Assembly (NCBI RefSeq): GCF_963921235.1
Contig: NC_086107.1
Coordinates: 99,884,001 to 99,948,000, forward strand
Direction: 5' to 3'
Length of the DNA stretch: 64,000 nt
Source of the DNA: Mobula hypostoma
Lineage: Eukaryota
In this document: piece by piece, positions 1 through 60,135 of the stretch
Layout of the letters: every line of letters begins with the position of its first letter
Position numbering within the stretch: position 1 is the first letter of the stretch
Program-made: the position numbers and the translations under genes
The notes under the pieces: generated by a model
Database searches by the model: none
Told to the model about the DNA's origin: nothing
The model's input: only the letters and a program-made list of their open reading frames with translations

Positions 1-275
1 TTACATTAAAACGGAATATTCTTTTATCCTCGTGCAAGCCTTTGTGTTCTATTTGTTTCTACCTCCTCCTTTTGCAGGAGGCTACAGATGTTATTTGACT
101 CCTAGGCAAGGCTAGGGTTACCCAACACCAGCTTAGTAACCCATCCCATTTCCACCCACTAACCCGCTCTTTTAGAGTTCTCCTTTCTGGGCATCCACTA
201 GAATCAACACCCCCCCCCCCACCTCCCGGAGTCTTCCATACGCAGTTATGCCCCTCTCACATTTATTTCCCTTAC

Positions 276-366
276 CCTGAACAACCGTACGTTTTCGGAT
301 CTCACTGTCATGTACAGGGCCGTTTCTCTCTGACCCAGAGCTCAGTCTCTGGAGTTCACTGAAAAC
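276..366 (-). CDS. HMOX1: HMOX1 exon 4b
   Basis: tttgcag|GTT TTC AGT GAA...CAG G|gtaagg; 91 bp; [30 protein letters not shown]; phase-1 end as in canonical HMOX1 exon 4. Confidence 0.9.
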
Positions 367-3300
367 CTGCAAAGAGAAATGAAGAGATGTTTTTATTCCA
401 AAGGATGCACAGCAGCTGCCACTTGGGGGGGGGGGGTGGTTAAAGGAAAGGTGGGAAGGAACTCAATCGATGTGAGATAGTCCGAAAAGGCTGGGCTCCA
501 ATCCCCAAAGAGGTTTGGAGCAGCTGATCTTTAAAATAAGTAAAAGGAATACAATTGACCATTATTCTTCAAATTGGCAGGAAATATTCCATCACCTGAC
601 TGCCGGGAAGCTATGGTTAAATATCTTGATGGCTGGGCTCATGCAAGCCTGGTCACTGGAGTGAACCTTTAGCTGGGTGGCAGCTTTCCTACCTCTGAAT
701 CCAAGTTGCAGTGGTGGAACTCCCTTCTGGAAGGTCTTAGTGAGAGGAGTACTGAGCTGGATGTCTTGGTGAATGGAGGAATGAGTTGGAGTTCTGGACT
801 AGCTAATTGGACACTTTGGCTTGATAAGTTGACTTGAGCTGGGTAGCAGCATACACACCTCTGAATGAAAGGAGCAGTGGTGGAACTCCCTTCTGGAAGG
901 TCTTAGCAAGTGGAGGATGGGTAGGACTTCTGGACCAGCTAAATGGATACAATGGTTTGATAAATTCACTGCATCCTCTCTGCACTGTATGTGAGAGACC
1001 ACACAACATCTTCCCATACCATCAAAAAAAAAGTTTAAATAATAACAAAAACTGAAAAAGAAACTCAGTAGGTCAGTCAAATCTTCATGTCTGTGACTCT
1101 TTCCCAGAAATGTTGATATTTCAGATTTCCACCATCTGTAGTTTTTTTTTGCATCTGTAATTATTTTCAGAATAACTTAGTTGTCGGTTAGAATGGAGGT
1201 GGTGCAGAGAGGATTTGTGACATGTTCCATCACTGTATTAGTCAGATTGAGGTTACATCCTCTGCAGGGTTTGAAAAAAAGTAGAACATACGGATATGAA
1301 CAGAACCACCACTGCACACTGCCAGTCTTAAATGATTTGCTGACCCACAAAGCGTACAAATTTAACCAGAAACTGTGGTTACTGGTTTTGTAGCATTCAG
1401 CATGTCTTACCTCCACGTTCAGCTGAAAGGCCCGATTTGCCTCTTCCAGGATCCTTTGCTGCGTCTCTCCGACGGCTTCCAGCGTGTTCATGCGCGAGCG
1501 GTACAGCTGCTTGAACTTGTTTGCGCTGGTGATGCGGTCAAAGGTGAAGAAGGCGCTCCCCTCGCCCGTGCTCGGCAGCTGCAAAGCTTTCTGGGCCACC
1601 TTCTTCAGCACCTGCCCCCCCGACAGGTCACCCAGGTACCTGATGTAGGCGTGAGCGACCAGCAGCTCGGGCTCCTCGCGCCCCACGTGCTGGATCCGCC
1701 TCACGTATTTCTCAGTGGCCTTCGGACACTTAATGTGGCTCCTCCACTCCGGCCCATGGAAGCATTCCAGGTCCTTCTCCAAGGCTTCCTTCCGATTCAG
1801 TTCAGAGGGAAAGTAGACGGGGGCGAAGGCCGGGTGGTCCTTGTTCCGCTCGCTCTCCTCTTCCAGGGCAGTGTAGATGAAGTACAGAGAGTCCAGTAAC
1901 AGCTGGAGTGGGGAGGGAAGCAAATGGCTGGTGAGCAAGGTTTATCTCATGACTGGAGCATCAACACAGGAGGGGACGGAGGGAGAGGGTAGAGCAGACA
2001 TTGGCTCGTCTCAGTGAGCTTGTCAGCAAGATGATGATACTGAAGGGGAAGGTAGAAAAAGAACTCCCATGGTTCTGAGTGCATTGGAGAGATACGAGAG
2101 CCAGGTTTCCAACCTACATTGAAAGAGCGCTCGTTCGAGGAGCATTTGTCTTACCACCCAAGGCAAGAAAGCAGCAAGACCAACTGAACTCCCCGCTTCC
2201 AGCTTGGTAACGATAGGGAAGAGAGATGTGGGAAGGATGGAAAAGAGGAGGGATGGGCCAAGTGCAGGCCAAATAATGAAGAAAATATGAAACAGGATAT
2301 TCAATTACAGTCCAACTTCAAACTGAAAGGATGGTACATTCTTGCATCCTTACCGTAAATTGATCTTTGGTGACCTGGCCCTTCTGGAAGTTCCTCATAA
2401 ACTGAGAGTTCTCGGCCAATTCATGGGACTCCTTTGTGGCCAGCTTCAGGGCTTCTGACAGGTCACTGGGCACGCTGAAGGAAGAAGTCAAAAGGGAATT
2501 AGTTTGGACGAGTCCAGTGTTAGTTCAGTCTCCACAGACCAACTCCTCGGTTCAAACAGACCCATCTCCAAAATACATGCACAATTCCTGATTAGTTCTT
2601 TCAACCAAGAGCTTTATGGAGGGAAATAGAAACTCTTTCAGCTGTGAAAAGCAAGCCCTTCCCCAGTGTACACTTCAGGTTCACTGCTCAGTGTTTTCAA
2701 GCCCAGAGTTCAATTACGCCTCTGGTTCAACCCAGGGCAATCTGGTGTCTCGTGCTATACTATCCTCCCCAGTCCATGACAGGGAATTAATTCCCTCTGC
2801 CTATCCCAACCCAGAGCAGTGCGGGCACCCACCTTCCCTGTCAGCTCGCTCTCCAACCCAGGATATTGTATTAGATTATAACCCCTACCCACTTCCTCTC
2901 CAACTCACATTGCAGTAGCTCAGTCACCTGCTGCTTGGCCACCTCGCTACCAGGAAATGCTGGGTTTACCAACATTAAACCCCAAAGTGTGGCTAGTGTG
3001 GAATGGGGATGGACTGCTGTATAGCAGATATCAATTTGAGGACGGCAATCTGATCCATGGGGCCTGCAATGCATGAAGAGCACTTTGATCTAAATCTGTA
3101 TCGGGACATTTTTAAGTGACTAATTTGGGTTTGGATTGAGGAAGCTCTTCCTCATCCATCTTGTGTGCTTCCCGAGTCCAACAGGTTTGTTGTCATTGTG
3201 CTCCAGTTGGCCAAAGGACAGAGAACGAGTGATATTTGTACAGTACTATGCAAAAGTCTTGGGCATATATAGGTAAAGTACCCAAAACTTTTGCACAGTA

Positions 3301-6300
3301 CTGTGGTAATTTTATGTATTGCACTGTACTGCTGCTGTAGACAAAGAGAAAATAAATTTCATGACATCTGAGTGATGATAAACCCAACTTTGATATGGGT
3401 CTCTGTGGCGGACTGAGAGTGGGAAGGGGGCAGGGAGAGGGGAAATCATGGTTGGGAAAAGGGGAAGGGAGCAGGAAGCACCAGAGAGACATTCTGTAAT
3501 GATCAATAAACCAATTGTTTGGAATCAATTAAGCTTGCCAGATGTCTCGGGGTTGGGCGTGTCTGGACTTGTGCCAACCTCTGTCCCCGGCACTCCTTCT
3601 CCACCACCTGCCCACAACCCTTCCGTGGCACTCCACCCTCGCCATTCCCATCATCCCTTGCTCCCACCAGATATACAAACTTGCTCTCCGCTCCAGGTTG
3701 ACAAATCTAGTACTGTGCAAAAGTCTTTGGCATCCGAGCTAAGACTTTTGTACAGAACCATACTTATCAGCTCAGTTGTTAAACTGTCTTTATGGTATCC
3801 TGTTCACTTTCCTTTTTGTTTTTGGCGCGTGCATGCGTGTGCGATGTTGGTGAGATGATGTCTTTTTCATGCCTTTACAAGGCGCGGAGCAAGAGAGAGA
3901 CTGTGTGGATGGCCACTCCTCACACAGACATTTCGCAGTATTTTTCCCTTTATCTTACGAGGTCGAGTTGCGATCCCGACACTCAACCCGGCACGGATGG
4001 AAAGTGTACTCGGGAGCGGCCCTGACCGGGTTCGAACCCGGGATCCTCCGTTCCAGAGTCCAGCGCTGATGTCATTGCGCCACCAGCCGGCCCCTGCCCA
4101 CTTTCTCAACTAATCACATCCATCACATGTTCCCCAACCCAATATTCTGCTGGGTCACTAACTGTAACACCCCCCCCAATTAAATACTGAAGGAGTGGCA
4201 CATTTTTTGGCTTAGGAAGCTGGAGCATCTCTCTGCATGTAACTGTGTTACAAACTGCAAGTGTCTTACCTGCCATTCAGGAGGTTGCTGTTCTTCTGGT
4301 CTTGAGCTCCCAGCTGCAGCAACTCGTCGAAAACCTGCAGTGTGGAAATAAATTGAGGTAGTTTGAGACCAAGACTGAAGTACAGACAAGCCTCAAGGAC
4401 CAGGCCAAACATAAACCCTCAGTATGAAGCTAGTGAGCTATTCGTACCAAGGACGAACAACTTTCCTACTAAGGCTGAAGATGCAGCAGAAACAAATCCA
4501 AACAACCTTTGATAATATTAAAAACACCCAGTGAAATACTCGACCAGGACCTCTCCCTTACCTCCACATTCAGCTGAAAGGCCCGATTTGCCTCTTCCAG
4601 GATCCTTTGCTGTGTCTCTCCGACGGCTTCCAGCGTGTTCATGCGCGAGCGGTACAGCTGCTTGAACTTGTTCGCGCTGGTGATGCGGTCAAAGGTGAAG
4701 AAGGCGCTCCCCTCGCCCGTGCTCGGTAGCTGCAAAGCTTTCTGGGCCACCTTCTTCAGCACCTGCCCCCCCGACAGGTCACCCAGGTACCTGATGTAGG
4801 CGTGAGCGACCAGCAGCTCGGGCTCCTCGCGCCCCACGTGCTGGATCCGCCTCACGTATTTCTCAGTGGCCTTCGGACACTTAATGTGGCTCCTCCACTC
4901 CGGCCCATGGAAGTATTCCAGGTCCTTCTCCAAGGCTTCCTTCCGATCCAGTTCGGAGGGAAAGTAGACGGGGGCGAAGGCCGGGTGGTCCTTGTTCCGC
5001 TCGCTCTCCTCTTCCAGGGCAGTGTAGATGAAGTACAGAGAGTCCAGTAACAGCTGGAGTGGGGAGAGAAGTGAAAGTCTGATAAGCAAGCTTGACTCAC
5101 TATTGAAACAATGAGGCACATGGGGAGAGAGAATGAGGGTGGATGAATAAGATGACTCAGGGTGAGGAGGTATGGGAACTGACTGTAGGGAGCATAATAT
5201 TAAAGAGGGCACAGGGACAAAGAAGGGTGGGGTCAGCGAGTTCTTAGATATCAGATTCTGCCTTCTTTCCAAGCTTTACAAAGGAAACACTACATTATCT
5301 CAGTTGAAATAGAATCCATACAGTTTCCATGGGAACCTGGCCCAATATTTGTTGCTCAATCAACATCACAAGGATAGAAAATCTTATCTATGACGTGGAT
5401 CATGCCTCTGTCAAATTGGCTGCCTTTTTTCCCCACATTACTACAGACTCCATATCAGAAGTGTCTCTGCAGTGAGGGACTGGGTTGAGAGAACAGGTTA
5501 CACAAATTGGGCGTATTTGCTGAAGGCAGGAGATTGGGAGATCACACCGTAGTACTTCGAAGAAAGTAAAGCAGTGTTGGCCCTGACCAGATCTTTCACC
5601 TTGTCCTTAGAAGCTGACTGAAAGGTTATGGCCTACATTTGAAGGGAGACCGTCAAAACTAGTAGGAATAACACTGAGCAGAGGACTATCCACATTTGGG
5701 GTTCTACTGACCTGGTGCCTGGATTCTGAAGAACACTTTGGAGATTGGTTGGAGTGGTTAATAAAGAACTCTGTTACTGTGTGTGATTGCCTCAGAAAGC
5801 AAGTTTGGTGGATCTTAATCTTTCCTGCACTCCCTTTTAAAACGCTCTAAATATGTTGATTCCCTCATTGATTACGAAGCTTGAGATAAACTCTGGAAAC
5901 AGAGGTAAAGTGTGACACATAGAAACGATTAAAAGAAAGATTCACATTATCAGTTGGAGGTACAGAAGAGTAGGGTTTCAATTACTGGATTGGTAGTCAA
6001 AGGTCTGAACCACGACTTAGATTCCCAGCAGAACAACTAGCAAGTTTAAACTCAAACAATTAAACTCAAAATAAAAAAAAACTATGCTGATGATCAGAAT
6101 CGGGTTTAATGTCACCAGCACATGTCGTGAAATTTGTTGTCATTGCAGCAGCAGTACAATGCAATATATAATGGGAAAAAATAATTGAAGTAAATATGTA
6201 TACATTTTTATTGATATAAATTAGTTACATTAAATAAGTAGTGCAACAATAGAAGTAAAATTGTAGTGAAGTGGTGTTCATGGGTTTGATGGCTATTCAG

Positions 6301-9300
6301 AAATTGGATGGCAGAGGGGAAGAAGCAGTTTCTGAATTGTTGAGTATGTGCCTTCAGGCTCCTGTACCTGGTAGCAATGAGAACAAGGCATGCTGATCAA
6401 TCCACCAGGGTCATGCTGTCCTTTAGGGACAGAAACCTGCCTTCTTTACTCTATCTAGCCTACATGTGACTCCAGACCCCTCAACGTAATCTCACACCTC
6501 CTGAAACAGCCTAACAAGCATTCAAGTTGAGGGAGATCAGTTATGCCAATGATTTCTGAATTTAGAAAACCAATTAAAACAACAGTAATTTCTTGTAAAG
6601 ATTGACCATGGTGAGCTGGGTAATGTCCTCATTTCAAATGATTGGAGTGCTCCACAATCAAGTGCACAATATGTTCCTTAATTGCTGATAAGATTTGCCA
6701 GGCTCTTTAAAGCCATAAAATCTCCTCCCCTTCAGCACAGACTGAGGTTGCCCAGTATAACACCTGTTGTTTTGTAGGTGCCCGACTCCCGATTGGGAAA
6801 CTCAATGTTGTGACCAGTGTTGTGCAACTGAGCAAAACTGACAGGGCAGCTGTAAAACAACACACTTCACGTTATCCAAGTCAGCAATTGTAAATCTGAT
6901 TCTGAAATTCTGTAATCTGTCAGGTTCCAGACTTGTTGCAGTAGATGAGACTGGGCTGGCTAACTCATCCGTAGGTGAGACAAATGAAGACTTGTCTTTT
7001 TCAAGTCTGTGTGAAGAATTATCTCAAGATTCAATTTTATTAAAGGGCAGTGGGTTTCTCCATGGAACCCATAGCTATATTTATAAACACAAGAGTCTGC
7101 ACTAAATGCTGGAGGAACTCAGCAGGTCAGGCAGCATCTATGGAAAAAGAGTAAACAGCTGACATATTGGGCTGAGACCCTTCACCAGGACTGAGAAGAA
7201 AGGGGCAAGATGTCTGAATTAAAGTGTGGAGGGGGAGAGGAGAAAGAGGCTAGCTGGAAGGTGATAGGTGAAGGGCTGGAGAAGAAAGAATCTCATAGGA
7301 GGGTGGAATGTACTTCAGCACTAACAAGCTATTTGCTGTGCACAAGTATTTCCTACATAATAAACGTAACTATCTTTCACCTAGTGCTTAACAGCCAACT
7401 AAATGCTATGGAGGTTGTGAAAGAAGCAGTAAAAGTGATCCTTCCTTACATGTGCAGATGTATGGCTCTGGCCTGATGTCTATACCCAAAGCCTTGCCTA
7501 TCTCACAGGTTCCAGGTCTCACTGCCTCCCACCAATTCCCTAATCACCATCTTCCCCAAGGCCATGGTCAGTGAACTTCATCTACTTGTGGAGACACAGT
7601 GTGGAACAGGCCCTTTCAGCTTCGCTGCCAGCAATCCCCGATTTAACCCTCGCCTGATCACGGGACAACTTACAATGACCAACTAACCTGCCAACCGGTT
7701 CGTCTTTGGACTGTGGGAGGAAACCGGAGCACCCGGAGGAAACCCCACGAGGTCACGAGGAGAATGTACAAACTCCTTATGGACAGTGGCAGGATTGTAC
7801 CTCATTTTGTAAGCCACCTCAAAGATTATAATCTTCTGGTACATTGCAGTATGACAACAGGGAATCTGTGCTCATTCCTCTTAGATTGGGAAGGTTAAGG
7901 GGAAATTTAACAGGGGTATTCGTAAATGAGTTTAAACAGACTCGAGGTTGGTAACCAATGGACACAGATGGAGGATAATTGATAAAACAGCAGAGGAGAT
8001 GAATTCAGTTCAGATATATAATGAAAGACATTATTAATAACTGTGATAACTATTCGAAGAGAAAACATTTATAGGGCTTGGAAGAAGAAAATGATGGAAT
8101 CTAACTGGATAGCTCCTTTGAAGAGCCAACATGGACATGAAGGACCAAAAGATCTCCTTCAGCAGTGAAAGATCCACGATTTTATTGCTGGGACAACTAT
8201 TGAAATATGGATAAGTAGCGCAAAGATAGATGATTTCGAGAAGTTCTCAAGCATAGTTCCATCCCACTTAACCCCCATGTATACTAGGTTGACCAAATTG
8301 TCAAAGGTAGATGCTTACTGTAAACTGATCCCTTGTGACTTGACCCTTCTGGAAGTTTCTCATAAATTCGGAGTTTTCAGCAAGTTCGTGTGACTCCTTT
8401 GTGGCCAACTTCAGAGCCTCTGATAAGTCGGTGGGCATGCTAGGACAAAGAGGTCAAATTGGGTCAAGTACAGCAGTACACAGGGAGTTTTCCGAGTTAA
8501 ACACATCCTGGGGCAGGACAGGAGGAGTTAATCAGGTTGAATACGTGCCCCATTCCTGTTCTAACTCCTGGGTTGCCTCACATCTGGTTCCCAACCCCCA
8601 CTCTAACTCCCAGTTTCAATCCCATCCCCATGCTCTAACACCGGGGTTTCCCCCATTCCTGGGCTCACACACTCCTTCTGTAACTCCTGGCTTCCACCCC
8701 CCACACTCCATCTCCTGGGTTAACCCCCCTCCTCACTGTTCCATTCTCTGGGTTACCCCCCATCACCACCATTCCATCCCCTGGGTCAACCCCCATCACC
8801 CCCTCACTCCATCTCCTGGGTCACCCTCATCACCAAAACTCCACCCCCTGGGTCACCCCCCATCACCCCCTCACTCCATCCCCTGGGTCACCCCCCCATC
8901 ACCAAAACTCAATGCCCTGGGTCACCTCCCATCACCATCACTCCATCCCCTGGGTCACCCCCCATCACCAAAACTTCATCCCCTGGGTCACCCCCCCATC
9001 ACCATCACTCCATCCCCTGGGTCACCCCCCCATCACCAAAACTCCATCCACTGGGTCACCCCCCCCCCATCAACATCACTCCATCTCCTGGGTTAACCCC
9101 TCCTCACTGTTCCATTCTCTGGGTTACCCCCCATCACTGCCACTCCATCCCCTGGGTCACCCTCCCCATCAACATCACTCCATCCCCTGGGTCACCCCCC
9201 CCATCACCCCCTCACTCCATCCCCTGGGTCACCCCCCCATCACCACCACTCCATCCCCTGGGTCACCCCCCCCATCACCACCACTCCATCCCCTGGGTCA

Positions 9301-9772
9301 CCCTCCCCATCAACATCAGTCCATCCCCTGGGTCACCCCCCCATCACCCCCTCACTCCATCCCCTGGGTCACCCCCCCCATCACCACCACCCCATCACCA
9401 TCACTCCATCCCCGGGGTCACCCCCCCCATTACCACCACTCCATCCCCTGGGTCACCCCCCCCATCACCCCCTCACTCCATCTCCTGGGTTAACACCCTC
9501 CTCACTGTTCCATTCTCTGGGTGACCCCCCCCCCCCGTGCTCCATCTCCTAGGTTAATTCCCCCCCCCAACCACTACGATTCCTGGGTCCCCCCTCCCCA
9601 CAACAAATCTTCGGCTACTACTCCCGGTTCCAACCCTCTGCTCTAACTCCTGGCTCTGCCCAGTTCCCCATCTGCTCGGAAGCTCGGATCACTTTTCCCT
9701 CTAACTCTTCACGCCCCCAATTCCAGCTTCAGTCTTGGGTCGTGCTGCTCTCTCCTACCTTTCAGTATCCAT
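276..9772 (-). CDS. HMOX1: Heme oxygenase 1-like gene with internally duplicated catalytic domain; coding exons 9759-9772, 8319-8439, 4562-5053, 4270-4334, 2354-2474, 1411-1902, 276-366; terminal exon expected beyond the left edge
   Basis: All introns are GT-AG with consistent phases (2,0,0,2,0,0,1), giving 1396 nt of open frame. There are two copies each of the ATKESH proximal-His motif and [17 protein letters not shown]. Exon sizes 121 and 492 match vertebrate HMOX1 exons 2 and 3. No HMOX2-type CP motif in exon 4b. Confidence 0.85.
1411..1902 (-). CDS. HMOX1: HMOX1 exon 3b (domain 2 catalytic core)
   Basis: ctccag|CTG TTA...GTG GAG|gtaaga; 492 bp; lies within ORF 1177..1938. Confidence 0.96.
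2354..2474 (-). CDS. HMOX1: HMOX1 exon 2b (domain 2 N-terminus, proximal heme His)
   Basis: ccttcag|C GTG CCC...TTT ACG|gtaagg; 121 bp; [40 protein letters not shown]. Confidence 0.95.
3805..4095 (-). mobile_element. tRNA-derived SINE
   Basis: Minus strand begins GGGGCCGGCTGGTGGCGCAATG (A box) ... GGGTTCGAACCC (B box). Confidence 0.75.
4270..4334 (-). CDS. HMOX1: HMOX1 exon 4a (shortened exon 4 homolog, inter-domain linker)
   Basis: ctgcag|GTT TTC GAC GAG...GGC AG|gtaaga; 65 bp; [21 protein letters not shown]; ends in phase 2. Confidence 0.88.
4562..5053 (-). CDS. HMOX1: HMOX1 exon 3a (domain 1 catalytic core)
   Basis: ctccag|CTG TTA...GTG GAG|gtaagg; 492 bp; lies within ORF 4469..5272; carries [15 protein letters not shown]. 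Confidence 0.96.
8319..8439 (-). CDS. HMOX1: HMOX1 exon 2a (domain 1 N-terminus, proximal heme His)
   Basis: cctag|C ATG CCC...TTT ACA|gtaag; 121 bp; [40 protein letters not shown]. Confidence 0.95.
8700..9545. repeat. C-rich minisatellite (about 36-38 bp unit, ccatcccctgggtcacccccccatcacc...) in HMOX1 intron 1
   Basis: About 20 imperfect tandem copies are directly visible; they explain the Pro/His-rich spurious ORFs. Confidence 0.95.
9759..9772 (-). CDS. HMOX1: HMOX1 coding exon 1 (MDTE-S)
   Basis: ccccATGGATACTGAAAG|gtagga: good Kozak context, phase-2 donor like vertebrate HMOX1 exon 1, TATA-like element about 85 nt upstream. Confidence 0.75.
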
Positions 9773-9829
9773 GGGGAGCGCCTTCTCCTCTTGATCTTTT
9801 CCCCCCTCGATGCTTCTGATTTTCGGACT

Positions 9830-9935
9830 GCTGGAAGCGGGCAGCTTCACTCTCTTTTATCTCTCGTTCGGGTTCAGTGACGTGCCGAGGGGTTGTCTTT
9901 GTGGCCAGGTCCCTCCCACCATTCACATGACGGTG
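9830..9935 (-). promoter_or_regulatory. HMOX1 proximal promoter
   Basis: On the minus strand: GATAAAA TATA-like (9855-9861), CACGTCAC (9877-9884) and GTCATGTGA E-box (9923-9931) in a CpG-enriched stretch just upstream of exon 1. Confidence 0.6.
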
Positions 9936-10449
9936 CCCGCACAATGAGGCCGCCCTGCAAGCCGGTTGACTCCATTTCCTCACGGACTGTCCGCTGCTCC
10001 CCACTACTGCTCCTCTGTGGCTCTAAGTGAGCCGCCCAACTCAGGCAGGCTGGGGTAGTGCAAACAACAGAGTCAGCATCGGCAGAACTCTGCCCGGGGT
10101 TTAACCCCTTGGTTGCTGTTTACAGAGCATCAAGATGAGGAGTCTGTGGAAAGTCACGCTGGGGCTCAGGAAGCAAGATGGAGCTTGCAGTTATATCAGG
10201 ACGTGAGACATTTCACGCCCACTGAGGTTTTCTTGCAGTGCAGTCAATCTACGAGCGGCCAAATTCCTCATGGAGCAAGTACTTTTGTGATACTGATTAC
10301 AAGCTGGTGCGCAGAGAACTCTCCTTTCTCTGAAACAGTCCCCCAAGACCTTTTGCACACAGAAAATGCCTGGGACCTGTTTCCCATCAACAAATGGCAC
10401 CTCTGATAGTGACACAAGCCCTCGGGCAGAAAAGTTGTCTGCAGAGTAA

Positions 10450-10850
10450 AGCCCAATTTATACTTCTGCGTCAAATATACGCGTACCCTATGCCATACCC
10501 TACGCCGTAGGGTGACGTGCACCTCCCCAAAAATGTAACACACGTCGTGGCGACACAGACCGCAACAACTGTGATTGGTTCGCTTGGTAGCGTCGCATTT
10601 CCCGTTGCTGTTCTCCGCCATGTCCGTACACTGATGCGAAATAAATGGTTGGAGACGATGAACCAAATCGTCAAATCTACCTGCTGACATCCGAAAATAT
10701 TTGAAATGCATTTCCCTGTCCATGTCTCTCACGAAGAAACTCAACACAGTGGCATAGCAACCCCACCGCCAACTAGCGTTTTGGCGGTGAATTGCAGAGC
10801 GACGCATGCTTGCTACGGCGTAGCCCGTACGCACAAGTATAAATCAGCCT
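10450..10850 (-). mobile_element. PIF/Harbinger non-autonomous element
   Basis: Terminal inverted repeats AGCCCAATTTATACTTCTGCG / CGCACAAGTATAAATCAGCCT; internal remnant [16 protein letters not shown] resembles the Harbinger transposase N-terminus. Confidence 0.75.
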
Positions 10851-17667: not shown

Positions 17668-18590
17668 TTTAAGTTCCTTGGCATAAACATCACCGAGGAT
17701 CTCACGTAGTCTGTACATACTGGCTGTGTGGTGAAAAAGCACAACAGTGGGCACGTGGCCAAGTGGTTAAGGCATTGGACTAGCTACCTGAAGGTCATGA
17801 GTTTGAGCCCCAGTCGAGGGGACGTGTTGTGTCCTTGAGCAAAGCACTTAATCACACAGTGTTCTGCGACGACACCGGTGCCAAGCTGTATGGGTCCTAA
17901 TGCCCTTCCCTTGGACAACATCGGTGTCGTGGAGAGGGGAGACTTGCAGCATGGGCAATTGCTGGTCTTCCATACAACCTTGCCCAGGCCTGCGCCCTGG
18001 AGAGCGAAGACTTTCCAGGCGCAGATCCGTGGTCTCGCAAGACTAACGGATGCCTCTTTCACCTCAAACAGTTGAAGAAGTTTGGTATGAGCTCCCAAAT
18101 CCTAAGAACTTTCCACAGGGGCACAATTGAGAGCATCCTGACTGTCTGCATCACTGCCTGGTATGGGAACTGTACCTCCCTCAATCGCAGGACTCTGCAG
18201 AGAGTGGTGCGGACAGCCCAGCACATCTGTAGATGTGAACTTCCCATGATTCAGGACATTTACAAAGACAGGTATGTAAAAAGGCCCTGAAGGATCTTTG
18301 GAGACCTGAGTCACCCCAACCGCAAACTGTTCCAGCTGCTACCATCCGGGAAACGGTACCACAGCATAAAAGCCAGGGCCAACAGGCTCCGGGAAGTTTC
18401 TTCCACCAGACCATCAGACTGATTAATTCATGCTGACATAACTGTATTTCTATGTTATATTGACTATCCTCTTATACATACTATTTATTATAAATTACTA
18501 TAATTGCACATTGTACATTTAGACAGAGGTGTATTGTAAATATTTTTGCTGCTCATGTATATGAAGGATGCAAGTCATAAAGTCAATTCC
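17668..18590 (+). mobile_element. Rex1/Babar-type LINE 3' fragment, interrupted by a SINE
   Basis: IESILTVCITAWYGNC...LQRVVRTAQHI motif followed by an AT-rich 3' UTR. Confidence 0.8.
17749..18056 (+). mobile_element. tRNA-derived SINE
   Basis: GGGCACGTGGCCAAGTGGTTAAGG A box, followed by a B-box-like motif; near-identical inverted copy at 31099-31404. Confidence 0.85.
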
Positions 18591-34205: not shown

Positions 34206-37115
34206 TTAGAAACATAGAAAACCTACAGCACAATACAGGCCCTTCGGCCCACAATGCTGTGCCAAACAAGTACTTACTTCAGAAATTACCTTGGGTTACC
34301 CATAGCCCTCTATTTTTCTGAGCTCCATGTACCTATCCAGGAGTCTCTTAAAAGACCCTATCGTATCCGTCTCCACCACCGTCGCCGGCAGCCCATTCCA
34401 TGCACTCGCCATACTCTGCGTAAAAAACTTACCCCTGTCATCTCCTCTGTACCTCCTTCCAAGCACCTTAAAACTGTGCCCTCTCGTGTTAACCATTTCA
34501 GCCCTGGGAAAAAGCCTCTGATTGTCCACACGATCAATGCCTCTCATCATCTTATACACCTCTATCAGGTCACCTCTCATCCTCTGTCGCTCCAAGGAGA
34601 AAAGGCCGAGTTCACTCAACCTATTCTCATAAGGCACGCTCCCCAATCCAGGCAACATCCTTGTGAATCTCATCTGCACCCTTTCTACGGTTTCCATATC
34701 CTTCCTGTAGTGAGGTGAACAGAACTGAGCACTGTACTCTAAGTGGGGTCTGACCAGGGTCCTATATAGCTGTAACATTACCTCTCGGCTCTTAAACTCA
34801 ATCCCATGATTGAATGTCCTATGCACTCAGACCCTAAGATCCCTCTGATCCTCCACACTGCCAAGAGTCTTACTATTAATACTATATTCTGCCATCATAT
34901 TTGACCTACCAAAATGAACCACCTCACACTTACACGAGGAAATCTGCAGATACTGGAAATTCAAGCAACACACACAAAAAATGCTGGTGAATGCAGCAGG
35001 CCAGGCAACATCTATAGGAAGAGGTACAGTCGATGTTTTGGGCTGGGACCCTTCGTCAGGACTAACTGAAAGAAGAGATAGTAAGAGATTTGAAAGTGGG
35101 AGGGGGAGGGGGAGAACTGAAAGAAGAGATAGTAAGAGTCCCAGCAATGCCTGCCTTTTTGTCGGCTTTGTGGAACAATCCATGTTCCAAGCCTATACTG
35201 GTATCTGTCCCCCTCTTTTCCCTCGCTACATCGACAACTGCATTGGCGCTGCTTTCTGCACGCATGCTGAGCTCATTGACTTCACTAACTTTGCCTCAAC
35301 TATCACCCTGCCCTCAAGTTTACCTGGTCCATTTCCAACACCTCCCTCCCCTTTCTAGATCTTTCTGTCTCTGTCTCTGAAGACAGCTTATCTACTGATG
35401 TCTATTATAAGCCTATGGACTCTCACAGCTACCTGGACTATTCCTCTTCCCACCCTGTCTTTTGCAAAAATGCCATCTCCTTCTCTCAATTCCTCCTTCT
35501 CCGCCGCATCTGCTCTCAAGATGAGGCTTTTCATTCCAGGACGAAGGAGATGTCTTCCTTTTTTAAAGAAAGAGGCTTCCCTTCTTCCACCATCAACTCT
35601 GCTCTCAAACGCATCTCTCCCATTTCACACACATCTGCTCTCACCCCATCCTCCCACCACCTCACTAGGAATAGGGTTCCCCTGGTCCTCACCTACCACC
35701 CCACCAACCTCCGGGTCCAACATATTATTCTCCGTAACTTCCGCCACCTCCAACGGGATCCCACAACTAAGCACATCTTACCGCCCACCCCCCCGCTTTC
35801 CGCAGGGATTGCTCCCTATGCGACTCCCTTGTCCATTCATTCCCCCCAATCCCTTCCCACCGAACTCCCTCCCGGCACTTATCCTTGTAAGCGGAACAAG
35901 TGCTACACATGCCCTTACACTTCCTCCCCCACCGCCATTCAGGGCCCCAGACAGTCCTTCCAGGTGAGGCGACACTTCACCTGTGAGTCGGCTGGGGTGA
36001 TATACTGCGTCCGGTGCTCCCGATGTGGCCTTCTATATATTGGCGAGACCCGACGCAGACTGGGAGATCGTTTCGCTGAACACCTACGCTCTGTCCGCCA
36101 GAGAAAGCAGGATCTCCCAGTGGCCACACATTTTAATTCCATGTCCCATTCCCATTCTGATATGTCTATCCACGGCCTCCTCTACTGTCAAGATGAAGCC
36201 ACACTCAGGTTGGAGGAACAACACCTTATATTCCGTCTGGGTAGCCTCCAACCTGATGGCATGAACATTGACTTCTCTAACTTCCGTTAATGCCCCACCT
36301 CCCCCTCGTACTCCATCCCTTATTTATTTATTTAATATATATTTTATATATTTTTGTTCCCCCCCCTTTTTTTCTCTTGCTCTCTCTTTTTTCTCCCTAT
36401 GTCCCTCTCACTATAACTCTTTGCCTGCTCTCCACCCTCTGGGCTCCCCTCCCCCCTTCTCTTTTTCCCCAGGCTTCCCGTCCCATGATTCTTTCCCTTC
36501 TCCAGCCTGGTATCCCTTTTGCCAATCAACTGTCCAGCTCTTGGCTCCATCCCTCCCCCTCCTGTCTTCTCCTATCATTTTGGATCTCCCCTCCCCTTCC
36601 CACTTTCGAATCTCTTACTATCTCTTCTTTCAGTTAGTCCTGACGAAGGGTCCCGGTCCAAAATGTCGACTGTACCTCTTCCTATAGATGCTGCCTGGCC
36701 TGCTGCATTCACCAGCATTTTTTGTGTGTGTCACCTCACACTTATCTGGGTTGACCTCCATCTGCCACTTCTCAGCCCAGTTTTGCATCTTATCACTGTT
36801 CCGCTGTAACCTCTGACAGCCCTCCACACAATCCTCAACACCCCCAACCTTTGTGTCATCAGCAGATTTATTAACCTATCCCTCCACTTCCTCATCCAGG
36901 TCATTTATAAAAATCACAAAGAGTAAGGGTCCCAGGACAGATCCCTGAGGCACTCCACTGGTGACCGACCTCCATACAGAATATGACCTCTTCTACAACC
37001 ACTCTTTGCCTCCTGTGGGCAAGCGAGTTCTGGATCCACAAAGCAATGTCCCCTCAGATCCCATGCCTCCTTACTTTCTCAATAAGCCTTGCATGGGGTA
37101 CCTTACCAAATGCCT
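34206..37115 (-). mobile_element. CR1 LINE 3' part, split by a Penelope insertion
   Basis: ORF 34296..34826 (LYRTLVRPHLEY...TRGHSFK); continues after 36732 (LQRNSDKMQNWAEKWQM). Confidence 0.9.
34933..36731 (+). mobile_element. Penelope-like retroelement (RT end plus GIY-YIG endonuclease) with inverted 5' pseudo-LTR
   Basis: ORF 35415..36290 contains GVIYCVRCSRCGLLYIGET...RFAEH...LQPDGMN; RYIDNC RT remnant upstream; 13-bp TSD cacctcacactta at 34920 and 36732. Confidence 0.93.
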
Positions 37116-52303: not shown

Positions 52304-55300
52304 CATAAAGGCTTGGCCTCCACAGCTGCCTGTGGCCTGTGACCTCTGGTTTCCCTTTCCTGAAGTCTATAATCAGTTCCTTGATCTATATTGAATGAGA
52401 GGTTGTTGTTATGACCCCACTCAGCCAAATTTTCAATCTCCCTCTATTATGCTCGTTTGTCACCACCTTTGATTCAGCCCACAATAGTGGTGTCATCGGC
52501 AAACTTGAATATGGTACCGGAGCTGTGCTTATCCAATCATAGGTGTAAAATGACTTGAGCAGGGGGGTGAAGCACACTGTCCTGGGGTCTACCTGTGATA
52601 CTTTATACTTTATTGTTGCCAAACATTTGATAATAGAACGTACAATCATCACAGTGACATTTGATTCTGCGCTTCGTGCTCCCTGGAGTACAAATCAATA
52701 GTAAATATTAAAAATTTAAGTTTTAAATCATAAATAGAAAACAGAAAAGGGAAAGTAAGGTAGTGCAAAAAAAAAACCCAGAGGCAGGTCTGGATATTTG
52801 GAGGGTATGGCCCAGATCCGGGTCACGATCCATTCAGCAGTCCTATCACAGTTGGAAAGAAGCTGTTCCCAAATCTGGCCGTATGAGTCTTCAAGCTCCT
52901 GAGCCTTCTCCTGGCGAGAAGAGGGATGAAAAGTGGGTCGTGTCCTTGATTATCCTGGCAGAACTGCCCTGACAGGGCGCGGTGCAGCGTGAGTCCATGG
53001 ACAGAAGATTGGTTTGTGTGATGTGCTGGGCTGTGTTCATGATCTTCCGCAGCTTCTTCCAGTCTTGGACAGAACAACTTCCATACCAGGTTGTGATGCA
53101 CCCTAGAAGAATGCTTTCTATGGTGCATCTATAAAAATTAGTGAGGGTTTTAGGGGACAGGCCAAATTTCTTTCGCTTTTTCAGGAAGTAAAGGATCTGA
53201 TAGACTTTCTTGGCAGTGGACTCAACTTGGTTGGACCAAGTCAGGTCGTTTGTGATATTGACCCCGAGGAACTTAAAGCCGATTGACTAAAGCTCTGTGA
53301 TTTTGTATTACTTATATATTTTATATTTCTTATTGTGAACTATTTAAAATTTTACGTATCTCACTGTGCTACTGCCGCAAAACAGCAAATTTCATGACAC
53401 ATGTCGGAGATAATAAAATTGAGTCTGATTCTCAGTGGGCCTGTTCTGTGCTGCCTCACTCCCTGCTGTCCGGGGCATCGGTGTCCCGTCCCCTAAATCC
53501 CAGTCACGGCGCCGGGGAAGAGGGGCAAAGGCAACCCGCGACCCCCACACCGGACCAACCTGCTGCCGCCGACCGACTCGCCCCGTCACGGCTCCAGGCC
53601 CGGCGCCGTCACCGATTGCGTCAAACGTCACTTTCCGACGCTGCGTCGCCAACCGGAGCGCGGTGGGGAGGGGGCGGGGGTCGCTGGAGGGGTGGGCGGT
53701 GAGTGGGGGGTTGGGGGGGGGAATCCGATTGCCTTAGCGCTCCCTCTACAGGCTGATCTCCACATCACATCGGCTCCCTAACATCGGGGTCGTGTCTTCG
53801 TCGGGTTCGTCAGGCGCGGCTCCAGGGAGCCCTTCACCGTTCCGAACTATTCTCTCTCAATGCATCCCCTGCCGAATCCCTTTCAGTTTGGTTTTTCCAT
53901 GAACCCATTCTACCCGACTATTTACAATTGCCGGTTGATCTGCAGACATCCCACCCTGCAAAATCTCACTTCGGGGAGGCGGCATTTCATACATCTCATT
54001 CTTCTCGTGTGTGTGTGTGTGTGAGAGAGAGAGAAAGAAAGAGAAAAACACGCCATGGCAGAGTGTTCCCAAAAAAGAAAATATAAAACGTACCTCACCC
54101 CAGACTACCCTAAAGCGTACCCCTGCCTAATAGGGATCAAAAATAATGACAGTGTTGCTCGCTGCACTGTTTGCAACAGTGATTTTTCTATTGCCCATGG
54201 TGGGTTAAGACTGTAAAAGACATGTTGAGGTGAGTTTAACAGGTGTCATTCGTTCATTAGCATAGCAAACGTTATTTAAACTAGCTGGCCAGCTGCTAAG
54301 GAGCTACTCGATTGCAGACATCCCACCTCTCCCGGAAGTCTCCTGCAAATTGATGGTACTACCTCCCTGAAATGAGTTTTTGCAGGGTGGGATGTCTGCA
54401 TAAAGGCTTGGCCTCCACAGCTGCCTGTGGCCTGTGACCTCTGGTTTCCCTTTCCTGAAGTCTATAATCAGTTCCTTGATCTATATTGAATGAGAGGTTG
54501 TTGTTATGACCCCACTCAGCCAAATTTTCAATCTCCCTCTAGTATGCTCGTTCGTCACCACCTTTGATTCGGCCCACAACAGTGGTGTCATCGGCAAACT
54601 TGAATATGGTACCGGAGCTGTGCTTATCCAATCATAGGTGTAAAATGACTTGAGCAGCGGGGTGAAGCACACTGTCCTATATACTTTATACCTTATTGTC
54701 TTCAAACAATTAATACTAGAGCGTACGATCATCACAGCGATATTTGATTCTGCGCTTCGCGCTCCCTGGAGTACAAATCGATAGTAAATATTAAGAATTT
54801 AAATTATAAATCATAAGTAGAAAACAGAAAAGGGAAAGTAAGGTAGTGCAAAAAAAACCGAGAGGCAGGTCCGGATAGTTGGAGGGTACGGCCCAGATCT
54901 GGGTCAGGATCCATTCAGCAGTCTTATCACAGTTGGAAAGAAGCTGTTCCCAAATCTGGCCGTATGAGTCTTCAAGCTCCTGGGCCTTCTCCTGGAGGGA
55001 AGAGGGATGAAAAGTATGTTGGCTGGGTGGGTCGTGTCCTTGACTATCCTGGCAGCACTGCTCCAACAGCGTGCGGTGTAAAGTGAGTCCAAGGATGGAA
55101 GATTGGTTTGTGTGATGTGCTGGGCTGTGTTCATGATCTTTTGCATCTTCCTCCGGTCTTGGAGAGGACAACTTCCATACCAGGTTGTGATGCACCCTAG
55201 AAGAATGCTTTCTACGGTGCATCTATAAAAATTAGTGAGGGTTTTAGGGGACAGGCCAAATTTCTTTAGCTTTCTCAGGAAGTAAAGGCGCTGGTGGGCC

Positions 55301-56245
55301 TTCTTGGCAGTGGACTCTGCTTGTTTGGACCAAGTCAGGTCATTTGCGATGTTGACCCCAAGGAACTTAAAGCTGATTGATTAAAGCTCTGTGGTTTTGT
55401 ATTACTTATATATTTTATATTTCTTATTGTAAACTATTTTAAATTTTATGTACCTCACTGTACTGCTGCCGCAAAACAGCAAATTTCATGACACATGTCG
55501 GAGATAATAAGATTGATTCTCATTCTCAGTAGGTTGTTCTGCGGTGCCTCACTCCCTGCTATCCTCCCTCCAGCCTGTAGAGGGAGCGCTCAGGCAATCG
55601 GATTCCCCCCCCCCAACCCCAACCCCACCCCCCCCCCCACTCACCGCCCACCCCTCCAGCGACCCCCGCCCCTCACCGCGCTCCGGTTGGCGACGCAGCG
55701 TCGGAAAGTGACGTTTGACGCAATCGGTGACGGCGCCGGGCCTGGAGCCGTGACGGGGCGAGTCGGTCGGCGGCAGCAGGTTGGTCCGGTGTGGGGGACG
55801 CGGGTCGTTTGAAATGCCTTTGCCCCTCTTCCCCGGCGCCGTGACTGGGATTTAGGGGACGGGACACCGATGAACCAGGTGGTGATCCCGGGCCGCCGCG
55901 TCCCCCACACCTTCGCAGAACTCTCGGTTCAGCCGCGCCTCCAGACACCTCCCGTCACATTTTCCCCGCGCCTTGCCTTGACCTTTTACCGATTTCCCAC
56001 AGTCTTCATCCCGTCTTCCGTAAACGTCCACATCAGATCGGCTGCCTTGCATCGGAGTCGGGTTCGTCAGGCGTGGCTCCAGGGAGCCCTTCACCGTTCC
56101 GAACTATTCTCTCTCAATGCATCCCCTGCCAAATCCCTTTCAGTTTGGTTTTTTCCATTAACCCATTCTACCCCACTATTGACAATTGCCGGTTGATCTG
56201 TAGACATCCCACCCTGGAAAAACTCACTTCAGGGAGGTGGCAGCA
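51890..56245. repeat. Tandem segmental duplication (about 2.1-2.25 kb units: about 51890-53985 and 53985-56245)
   Basis: Same order of MITE end, Rex/Babar fragment, CpG segment and unique tail in both units; the CpG segment is inverted in unit 1. Confidence 0.88.
55570..56100 (+). promoter_or_regulatory. CpG island, probable promoter and first non-coding exon of a plus-strand gene
   Basis: High GC and CpG density, GC boxes, CGGAAAGTGACG and TGACGCAA motifs, candidate donor CAG|GTTGGT near 55780. Confidence 0.6.
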
Positions 56246-57841: not shown

Positions 57842-60135
57842 TTTGGATCGGGACAACAGAGCAGCGTGGGAGCTGAATTCTGAAGGAAGGCAGTTTTTAA
57901 AAAAAACTGCTTTGCAAGAAGGAGGAGACTGCGCAGGCGCGTGACGTAACAGGACAGCGTGGAGAGTTTAAAAAGGAGGCCACCCTATACAGCGGGCAGC
58001 TGATGGAGCGGGCAGCGGAGTGAGTGGTAGCAGAGTGTAGGGCTTTGGCTTCAACGGGCTTCGGCGGTGACGGGAAGAGGAAAGAGCGAGGCACCAACTC
58101 TTTGTTTCCCCCCCACCCCCTTGGCGAATCAGCCCGGACAGACAGGATCAGCAGGGCTCACACAGCTAACGGTACGAGCTAACGGTTTAAAAAGTTCATC
58201 TGTTTGGCAAGGTAAGTGGGTGAGTAGACTTATTATTTTTCCTGTTTCATTCCTGTAGAATTAGCTAGCATGCCTGCAGGGTTAGTACTTTATTCAGGGT
58301 GTCAGATGTGGGAATCCTGGGAGACCTCCAGCCTCCCTGATGGCCACATCTGCGCCAGGTGCACCGAGATGCAGCTCCTCAGAGACCGTGTTAGGGATCT
58401 GGAGCTGCAGCTTGATGACCTACTGCTTATCAGGGAAAGTGAAGAGGTGATAAACAGGAGCTACAGGGAGGTAGTCATCCCTAGGCTACAGGGGTCAGAA
58501 AATCGGGTGACTGTCAGGAGAGGGAAGGAAAATGCCCGGAGAGTGGAGAGCACACCCGTGGCTGTCCCCCTCCACATCTTGTTCTGGATGCTGTTGAGGG
58601 GGATGACCTGACAGGGGACGCCCATAGTGACCGGGTCTCTGGCACTGAGCCTGGCGCTGTTGTGCAGGAAGGAAGGAAGGAGAAGAGGAATGCGGTAGTC
58701 ATAGGGGATTCCATAGTCAGGGGAACAGACAGGAGATTCTGTGAGCCTGATAGAGATACCCGCATGGTGTGTTGTCTCCCAGGTACCAGGGTACGGGATG
58801 TCTCGGATCGGGTCCAGAATATTCTGGAGGGAGAGGGTGAGCAGCCAGTTGTCTTGGTACATGTTGGTACCAATGACATAGATAGGACAAAGGAGGGGGT
58901 CCTGAAGAGAGATTTTTCCGGGAGTTAGGAAGGAAGCTGAGAATCTCGGGATTACTACCTGTGCCACGTGCTAGCGAGGGCAAGAACAGTAGAATCAGGC
59001 AGATGAATGCGTGGCTGAGAGACTGGTGCAAGGGGAAGGGCTTCAGATTCTTGGATCATTGGGATCTCTTCTGGGGGAAGTATGACCTGTTCAAAATGGA
59101 CAGGTTACACCTGAACCCGAAGTGGACCAATATCCTGGTGGGAAGGTTTAATAGAGCTGTTAGGGAAGGTTTAAACTAATTTGGCAGGGAGATGGGAACC
59201 GGAATGGTAGAGCAGAGGAAGGGGAAAACAGAAATAAATCTAAGATAGTGAGCAGTAAAGATGTCAGGAAAGACAGGCAGGTGATGGGGCAAATTTGTAG
59301 CCATTGGGATGAGTTGCAGTGAAATCAAAGCGGAAGGTACCAAATACTGGTCTTAAGGTGTTGTACTTAAATGCACGCTGCATAAGAAATAAGGTGGATG
59401 ATCTTGTTGTACAGCTACAGATTGGCAGGTGTGATATTGTGGCCATCACTGAGACATGGCTAAAGGATGCATGTCTCTGGGAGCTGAACGTCCAAGGATA
59501 CACGGTGTATTGGAAGGATAGGAAGGTAGGCAGAGGGGGAGGCGTGGCTTTATTGGTAAGAAATTATATTAAATCATTAGAAAGAGGTGATATAGGATCG
59601 GAAGGTGCAGAATCTTTATGGGTTGAGCTAAGGAATAGCAGGGGTAAAAGGACCCTGATGGCAGTTATATACAGGCCTCCAAACAGCTGCAGTGATGTGG
59701 ACTACAAATTACAACAGGAAATAGAAAAGGCTTGTCAGAAGGGCAGTGTTGTGATAATTGTGGGGGATTTTAACATGCGAGTGATTGGGAAAATCAGGTT
59801 GGCACTGGATCTCGAGAGAGAGAGAATTTGTAGAATGTCTGCAAGATGGCTTTTTAGAGCAGCTTGTTGTTGAGCCCACTAGGGGATCGGCTGTACTGGA
59901 TTGGGTATTGTGTAATGAACTGGAGGTGATTAGAGAGATTGAGGTAAAGGAACCCTTAGGAGGCAGTGATGATAACATGACTGAGTTCACTGTGAAATTT
60001 GAAAAAGAGAAGCCGAAATCCGATGTGTCGGTATTTCAGTGGAGTAAAGGAAATTACAGTGGCATGAGAGAGGAATTGGCTAAAGTTGACTGGAAAGGGA
60101 CACTGACGAGAAGGACGGCAGAGCAGCAGTGGTGT
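57842..60135 (+). mobile_element. CR1 LINE 5' part (5' UTR, ORF1 zinc finger/SGNH esterase, ORF2 APE endonuclease), frameshifted
   Basis: GCQMW...ICARC; VVIGDSIVRGTD; VHVGTND; LYLNARCIRNK; AITETW; VGDFN. Confidence 0.92.

Follow-up and report, generated by a model that had tools for sequence, protein, structure and literature searches.

Heme oxygenase 1 (HO-1), which is among the most studied stress enzymes, is to our knowledge treated as a single-domain, tail-anchored protein in vertebrates. Here we describe a 64,000-nucleotide stretch of the ray Mobula hypostoma (RefSeq assembly GCF_963921235.1, contig NC_086107.1, positions 99,884,001 to 99,948,000 of the forward strand; hereafter the window, with position 1 as its first letter), in which positions 276 to 9,772 are occupied by an HMOX1 (HO-1) gene whose exon 2-3-4 cassette is duplicated in tandem inside the gene. 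One of the closest known systems is mammalian HO-1 (HMOX1; structures 6EHA, 1N3U and 1NI6). Each half of the ray product resembles it over the whole catalytic core, including the proximal His, the GDLSGG distal helix and the predicted fold, and a C-terminal anchor is predicted in an orthologue; the exon borders agree with those of human HMOX1. The ray gene differs in that it contains the exon 2-3-4 cassette twice, in frame, with two catalytic cores per chain, and in that the position of human Thr135 is Ile. The only solved chains among our matches in which an HO-1 core lies within a larger chain are the engineered fusions of HO-1 with cytochrome P450 reductase (6J79, 6J7A, 6J7I); these are artificial and lack a natural counterpart here, and the partner is the reductase instead of a second HO. 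The same architecture and linker exon are present in public elasmobranch models named 'heme oxygenase 1a' or '1-like' (the Mobula birostris model P0005 and those of 12 further species), to which the window adds one more member; the models are automatic predictions with ordinary names, whereas the junction in the window was checked against RNA-type contigs. The two-cassette feature, first noted in a sequence-only reading of this DNA, is confirmed as real. Very probably it represents a conserved tandem-domain HO-1, in which the cassette 2-3-4 was duplicated within the gene and one message encodes a two-domain anchored enzyme.

The gene is found on the minus strand. The coding part of exon 1 (9759..9772) begins with the ATG at 9772, comprises 14 nucleotides (nt) and ends with two bases of a codon in front of a GTAGG donor. 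The first cassette consists of exon 2a (8319..8439, 121 nt), which starts HO domain 1 and carries its proximal His; exon 3a (4562..5053, 492 nt, 164 codons), which encodes the core of domain 1 with the GDLSGG distal helix; and exon 4a (4270..4334, 65 nt), a shortened relative of exon 4 which forms a linker exon and ends with two bases of a codon, in the same phase as exon 1. An inter-cassette intron of 1795 nt follows (2475..4269, GT..AG), which is rich in interspersed repeats. The second cassette consists of exon 2b (2354..2474, 121 nt), the start of HO domain 2 with the second proximal His; exon 3b (1411..1902, 492 nt), the core of domain 2, in which 7 of 492 nt differ from exon 3a; and exon 4b (276..366, 91 nt), an ordinary exon 4 which ends with one base of a codon and leads to an anchor exon outside the window. 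All six acceptors are AG after a pyrimidine tract and all seven donors are GTA or GTAAG. Splicing the seven exons together as they lie in the genome yields a sequence of 1396 nt, which translates into 465 residues with no stop. The phase of exon 4a is that of exon 1 and also the one needed by either exon 2, so that exon 4a splices in frame to exon 2b. Landmark searches and translation therefore reproduce every exon coordinate, phase and frame of the sequence-only reading (seven exons, 465 amino acids (aa)). An anchor-like exon 5 is not found in the 64-kb window, where tblastn with three elasmobranch proteins returned just the six cassette exons; since exon 4b needs a further exon, the last (membrane-anchor) exon is placed beyond the window start.

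The splice junction between the two cassettes was looked for in public sequencing runs, which were found by searching with the stretch from exon 3a to exon 4a (22 rows from eight studies). Logan assembled contigs of four runs were mapped onto window positions 2300-8500: X1 and X4 (organism A, study P1), X5 (organism B, study P2) and X19 (organism F, study P8). Four organism A runs contained roughly half of the words sampled, as expected for spliced RNA, because 71% of the searched stretch is exon. The joint 4270-2474 is found in three of the four mapped runs, from two studies and two organisms, in one contig each (depth 13.5 in X1, 485 in X4 and 198.7 in X5); its intron reads CT..AC on the plus strand, which is GT..AG on the strand of the gene. 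The joint between exons 3a and 4a (4560/4562 to 4332/4334) is present in the same three runs, and that between exon 2a and exon 3 (8319 to 5053) in X1 and X4. A further joint, 5053-2354, which appears to go back along the gene, is exon 2b spliced into exon 3b and mapped onto the near-identical copy 3a. Exon 3a is covered by contigs of all four runs. A single 708-nt contig of X1 runs through exons 3a, 4a and 2b into the first 30 nt of exon 3, and an equivalent 708-nt contig of X5 spans exons 3a, 4a and 2b. Four introns have been cleanly spliced out: the unique intron bins have a depth of 0 in X1 and of 0-6 in X4, compared with 105-933 in the exon bins of X4, and the intron contigs of X4 have zero differences from the window. 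Intron removal and the contrast in depth between exons and introns support that X1, X4 and X5 behave as RNA. Transcript evidence for the 4270-2474 junction had been named as the check on the proposed fusion, with no spanning reads as the outcome against it; the joint is present in three of four runs, so that outcome is absent. The claim of a single gene whose one message encodes two HO-1 catalytic domains in a continuous frame is thus supported, both by this junction and by the linker exon, phase and frame, which are kept in 14 of 14 elasmobranch models. The depths of the X4 contigs (174 for exon 2a, 485 for 4a-2b and 840 for exon 3) look compatible with exon 3 occurring twice per message; contig depth cannot rank the parts of a gene, and they were not used as evidence.

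There is also a difference between the exons in how far their two copies have diverged. On self-comparison of the window, the two copies of exon 3, taken with some 40 nt of the intron upstream, have 97.2% identity over 537 nt; this putative gene-conversion tract spans 4557..5093 in copy a (minus strand), with its partner at 1406-1942. The exon 2 copies are 79% identical over 148 nt and differ at 25 of 121 nt, and no match between the cassettes is found on self-comparison for the exon 4 copies and the introns. Based on codon counts, expressed as the proportions of differing silent (pS) and replacement (pN) sites since the silent sites of exon 2 are saturated, exon 2a and exon 2b have a pS of 0.805 (20.0 of 24.8 silent sites) and a pN of 0.053, versus 0.044 and 0.005 for exons 3a and 3b. 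The exon 2 copies are accordingly read from their codons as anciently diverged, saturated at silent sites and under purifying selection, and the exon 3 copies as recently homogenised, which is the signature of gene conversion. This pattern bears on whether the two cassettes are an artefact of assembly, that is, haplotypes or collapsed reads placed in tandem. The 97% identity of the exon 3 copies is what such an error might leave; however, saturated exon 2 copies, a homogenised exon 3 and unrelated introns and exon 4 copies form a pattern which an artefact could not give. Moreover, the junction that connects the copies occurs in transcripts of independent runs, and the same structure is modelled in the assemblies of 13 other species. 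Self-comparison, contig junction and codon divergence together refute an artefact, which has practically no chance of being correct. As a separate observation, at three of the seven sites which differ between exons 3a and 3b (window positions 4613, 4673 and 4727) the letter of the other copy is found in contigs of organism A or B; this fits either ongoing gene conversion or copies collapsed in contig assembly.

The distribution of multi-core HO-1 across species was determined from two protein searches. The search of longer proteins with exon 3a gave 586 hits at E <= 0.001 among 1511 candidates, and searching with the Mobula protein produced 677 hits at E <= 1e-60; the best 120 of each are listed, and all counts of models per species refer to these. 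At least 13 elasmobranch species have named public models of multi-core HO-1 among the matches listed. Two HO cores (506-532 aa) are found in Mobula birostris, Narcine, Amblyraja, Rhinoraja, Heterodontus, Pristiophorus, Chiloscyllium, Rhincodon, Mustelus and Scyliorhinus torazame, and three (737-748 aa) in Pristis, Heptranchias and Cetorhinus (P0001, P0002 and P0003); S. canicula has a low-quality model of 402 aa. The closest listed model is P0005 of Mobula birostris (511 aa), which is identical to the window product at 456 of 465 residues (9 differences). No named elasmobranch HO-1 of single-domain length is present among the best 120 of either length class; such a protein would rank at the top of the list, and its absence there was counted in favour of the tandem-domain gene. 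The linker is 20-24 aa long in all 14 elasmobranch models, in which the in-frame two-domain arrangement is also kept, and at 24 aa the linker of the window is like those of the batoid and squalomorph models. The linker has a conserved motif of the form VF.EL.QL..Q.Q.., which differs from the terminal exon 4 (…LSSGSERNG…RKR..Q). Because the linker exon and its phase are common to sharks and rays, both the linker and the duplication are older than the shark-ray split. The two features of the elasmobranch tandem-domain set are found together in the window: a short linker exon that derives from exon 4 and continues in frame into a second exon 2, and use of this junction in RNA-type contigs.

Outside the elasmobranchs, single-core proteins are found in the chimaera Callorhinchus (278 aa) and the bichir Erpetoichthys (287 aa). 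Two-core models (P0015-P0028, P0121) are present in about a dozen ray-finned fishes, including Megalops, Albula, Anguilla, Conger, Gymnothorax, Synaphobranchus, Brienomyrus, Arapaima, Scleropages and, in part, Amia. The models of these early-branching lineages resemble the elasmobranch ones in having two full HO cores, one C-terminal anchor and near-identical domains within each protein; the teleost linkers, however, comprise 41-52 aa and contain a stretch resembling the protein's own N-terminus, so that the duplicated unit differs from that of elasmobranchs. The linker of Amia has 20 aa.

Some of the listed models deserve separate mention. The three-core models each contain two identical or near-identical linkers, and cores 2 and 3 of Pristis are identical; these models reflect either a real change in cassette copy number or an artefact of modelling or assembly. 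Megalops, Albula, Anguilla rostrata, Conger and Synaphobranchus have two different models each, two-core or partly so. The Bagarius model P0029 has an anchor-like segment in the middle of the protein and looks like two merged genes. P0004, a protein of 985 aa from a Logan contig of 5028 nt, has four HO cores and four occurrences of GD[LI]SGG; linkers of 29-41 aa separate the cores, and the C-terminal tail is hydrophobic. It is 55% identical to ray exon 3; judged from this protein, a repeated HO core may exist outside jawed vertebrates too. P0152, a Logan protein of 221 aa, is 84% identical to exon 3a with unrelated residues on both sides of the exon-3 part, and is more readily seen as a piece of a skate-like HO-1 gene, unspliced or genomic, than as a short isoform.

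In the 25 multi-core proteins compared, adjacent cores of the same protein share 146-164 of 164 residues in the part encoded by exon 3; elasmobranch species are about 76-83% identical to one another overall. A maximum likelihood tree was built from 59 units; for 20 of the 25 proteins, the units belonging to the same protein group as a clade (19 with starred support), and the five unresolved proteins are those of two skates and three anguilliform '1a' proteins. The core tree cannot date the duplication, and the dating rests on the linker instead.

Several points weigh against a tandem-domain HO-1 made from one message. All four mapped runs are Logan contigs tagged 'RNA? (a guess)'. Contigs show presence and not proportions, and they drop rare variants, so that single-domain isoforms may occur at a minor or even sizeable level. 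Exon 1 and exon 4b lie outside the mapped stretch, and the joints 1-to-2b and 3a-to-4b could therefore not appear. Exons 3a and 3b share their first 30 nt, hence joints from exon 2a or 2b into exon 3 do not tell the copy, and X19 has no cover at exons 4a and 2b and is silent on the junction. Three of the NCBI names also carry 'isoform X1/X2'. Lastly, the fold and the anchor described below are those of the orthologue P0005 and not of the product of the window itself.

Alternative splicing could yield mostly single-domain HO-1, either from exon 1 to exon 2b or from exon 3a to exon 4b, with the two-domain message as a minor by-product. The codon phases permit both skips, the skip joints would have been invisible in the mapped stretch, and the isoform tags in NCBI agree with it. 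On the other side, the contigs of three runs pass through 4a-2b unbroken, which makes this path the main one at that node; the sequence and phase of the linker exon have been conserved since before the shark-ray split; both exon 2 copies appear to be under purifying selection; and the matches listed contain no named single-domain elasmobranch model. We consider predominant single-domain splicing unlikely, and the two-domain message would probably be the dominant isoform.

The inter-cassette intron is informative on whether the locus consists of two neighbouring genes, in which an upstream soluble, anchor-less HO ends after exon 4a, a downstream anchored HO has its own start, and the junction is a read-through chimera. 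Conjoined transcripts of tandem genes are common, and when the donor of exon 4a is left unused the frame ends after one more codon (R, stop), giving an anchor-less enzyme of 231 aa. However, the 1795 nt that follow exon 4a contain neither AATAAA nor ATTAAA on the gene strand, and the in-frame Met of exon 2a is replaced by Val in exon 2b. No start exon was found for copy b either: the sole candidate, an exon 1b at 3654-3608, was a pattern match in repeat-rich sequence with no joint in the contigs, and was rejected. The unique parts of the intron have a depth of 0-6 in X4, against 148-485 on exons 4a and 2b, and the linker is in frame and conserved in all 14 elasmobranch models. With no anchor-like exon, no poly(A) hexamer in the intron and Val in exon 2b, no route to two separate products is visible. 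Two adjacent genes are thus very unlikely, and the locus is better described as one gene with two cassettes.

The introns also contain repeats, at 3128-4162, 6026-6439 and 7061-7888, which are matched in all four runs by very many contigs of 90-95% likeness, with a depth of up to 240,825 (7061-7267 in X4). They are abundant transcribed interspersed repeat families. ARAGORN found no tRNA in positions 1-10500, and the tRNA-like look of the repeat near 4000-4090 is unconfirmed.

Concerning the encoded domains, both halves match the Pfam family Heme_oxygenase (PF01126). Exons 2a and 2b match profile positions 2-37 (6.6e-09 and 4.4e-09), and exons 3a and 3b positions 40-199 of 204 (1.8e-64 and 1.9e-64); the orthologue P0005 matches the family in two stretches (3.5e-159). 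In a phmmer search of solved structures, residues 4-226 of P0005 align with residues 7-229 of the human HO-1 chain (E 3e-92), at an offset of +3 to the human numbering. The positions of human His25, Tyr58, Arg136, Gly139-Gly144, Lys179, Arg183, Phe207 and Asn210 are invariant in both cores of all 22 two-core proteins aligned. The catalytic and heme-contact roles of His25, of Gly139-Asp140...Gly144 and of the other checked positions follow the HO-1 literature. The proximal His residues of the 22 proteins are H22 and H248, and the Gly-rich distal stretches are G136-G141 and G362-G367; these residues are present in the window product. The translation of the window and the alignment agree with the earlier statement that the proximal His and GDLSGG are kept in both domains.

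The fold was modelled with AlphaFold2 on P0005, which is 98% identical to the window product over its 465 residues, using the alignment of the 22 two-core proteins. The model has a mean predicted local distance difference test score (pLDDT) of 79.5 and contains two helical cores, with a block pLDDT of mostly 80-96. The linker (221-233) and the tail (446-489) have a pLDDT below 50, and a terminal helix is formed by residues 489-510. The predicted template modelling score of 0.47 gives no confident mutual orientation of the cores, which means that no fixed packing of the two is predicted. The all-helical HO fold is present in the model: the best Foldseek matches are human HO-1 (1NI6/1N3U; target-normalised template modelling (TM) score 0.96-0.97, root-mean-square deviation (rmsd) 1.1, 213 columns), and the top matches, human HO-1 and HO-2, have target-normalised TM scores of 0.96-0.98 and an rmsd of 0.8-1.2. 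None of the 50 listed chains of the Protein Data Bank covers both cores (query-normalised TM score <= 0.42). As for the proposed single anchor, none is visible in the window, and the helix at 489-510 of P0005 is the predicted C-terminal anchor on which this part of the proposal stands.

Taken from their residues, both domains appear to be complete and catalytically competent HO units. A fusion protein could nevertheless be made in which one domain is catalytic and the other serves in heme binding, regulation or scaffolding. Specialisation is common among tandem enzyme repeats, and the domains differ more in a few lineages (146-151 of 164 residues identical in Synaphobranchus, Anguilla 1a, Conger 1a and Narcine), which is not direct support. 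Against such a division of roles, all checked catalytic and heme-contact positions are invariant in both domains of the 22 proteins, and most species have homogenised copies of exon 3 (157-164 of 164), which keeps the domains equivalent. A second domain without catalytic function is very unlikely, and two active HO domains are the probable outcome.

The sequence-only reading knew of no described vertebrate example. In the literature covered, which includes few subscription journals, no description of doubled HO domains was found, and to this extent the statement stands; the models themselves are already public, and cover 13 species of elasmobranchs and roughly a dozen of bony fishes. The doubled HO-1 architecture is therefore already in public annotation, and within that literature it seems never to have been described in print.

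Other features of the window were also recorded. Intron 1 contains a minisatellite (8704..9396) with a period of about 35 (about 20 copies) or 67 (about 10 copies) and 80-82% matches, which is G-rich on the gene strand. One X4 contig of 541 nt comprises exon 2a and 388 nt further upstream, outside the mapped stretch (upstream of window position 8441). Provided that these 388 nt follow the genome without a break, transcription would begin near 10146, a long way before the ATG at 9772, and the leader would contain short upstream reading frames. The motif TGCTGACTC at 10070-10078 (minus strand), some 300 nt before the ATG, is similar to half of the Maf/stress-response element of mammalian HMOX1 enhancers. 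Between 10 and 64 kb there are 46 open frames of at least 125 aa, whose Pfam matches are only to fragments of mobile elements; no neighbouring cellular gene is found among them by Pfam. The fragments lie at 17901-18287, 35289-36287, 52894-53286, 54907-55380 and 59313-59870, and match ALKBH8_N-type domains (8e-4, 4e-08, 4.4e-14), GIY-YIG (weakly; 3.4e-4, below the Pfam cut-off) and the endonuclease Exo_endo_phos (1.8e-11); the ALKBH8_N-type match is one that occurs on retroelement fragments.

In the mechanism that we propose, the upstream copy of exon 4 would have been turned into a short linker exon whose donor phase is that of exon 1, and which would be joined to exon 2b without a break in the frame. 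The main message would then comprise exons 1, 2a, 3a, 4a, 2b, 3b and 4b and the anchor exon. Its predicted product has about 510 residues; a flexible stretch of about 13 residues connects two HO domains, and a disordered tail leads to one membrane anchor at the C-terminus. Each domain would use its own His to bind one heme, giving two hemes per chain, and would take electrons from cytochrome P450 reductase. A tail-anchored chain would in this way carry two independent heme-degrading cores, and the number of sites per anchor would be doubled. The suggestion of the sequence-only reading that this is a covalent counterpart of HO-1 oligomerisation finds neither support nor contradiction here; the known oligomerisation of HO-1 involves the membrane segment, and the model gives no interface between the cores. 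The duplication is old, from before the shark-ray split, and the exon 3 copies would be held near-identical by gene conversion.

The presence of conserved two- and three-core HO-1 across the sampled elasmobranchs and in several early-branching bony fishes is a chance to learn whether neighbouring cores cooperate and in what way they share the reductase, and it raises the question of why tetrapods and most teleosts have only one core. The gene is also a clean vertebrate case of intragenic cassette duplication in which one exon is homogenised (pS 0.04) and its neighbour saturated (pS 0.81). HO-1 antibodies, primers and expression estimates which are carried over to sharks and rays face a doubled target. 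More tentatively, and with some doubt on our part, multi-domain HO-1 might be an old and actively maintained design, with the cassette repeated two or three times on one anchor since before the divergence of sharks and rays, having arisen again or been retained in early ray-finned fishes, with four repeats in the non-vertebrate-like P0004 and with the repeats kept near-identical through gene conversion. If so, there would be selection for several heme-degrading sites per anchored chain. The gain could be, for example, one reductase docking event shared between the cores, or a higher local capacity in tissues which recycle blood, and such a design would offer a natural test of whether the self-association of HO-1 matters for its activity and stability.

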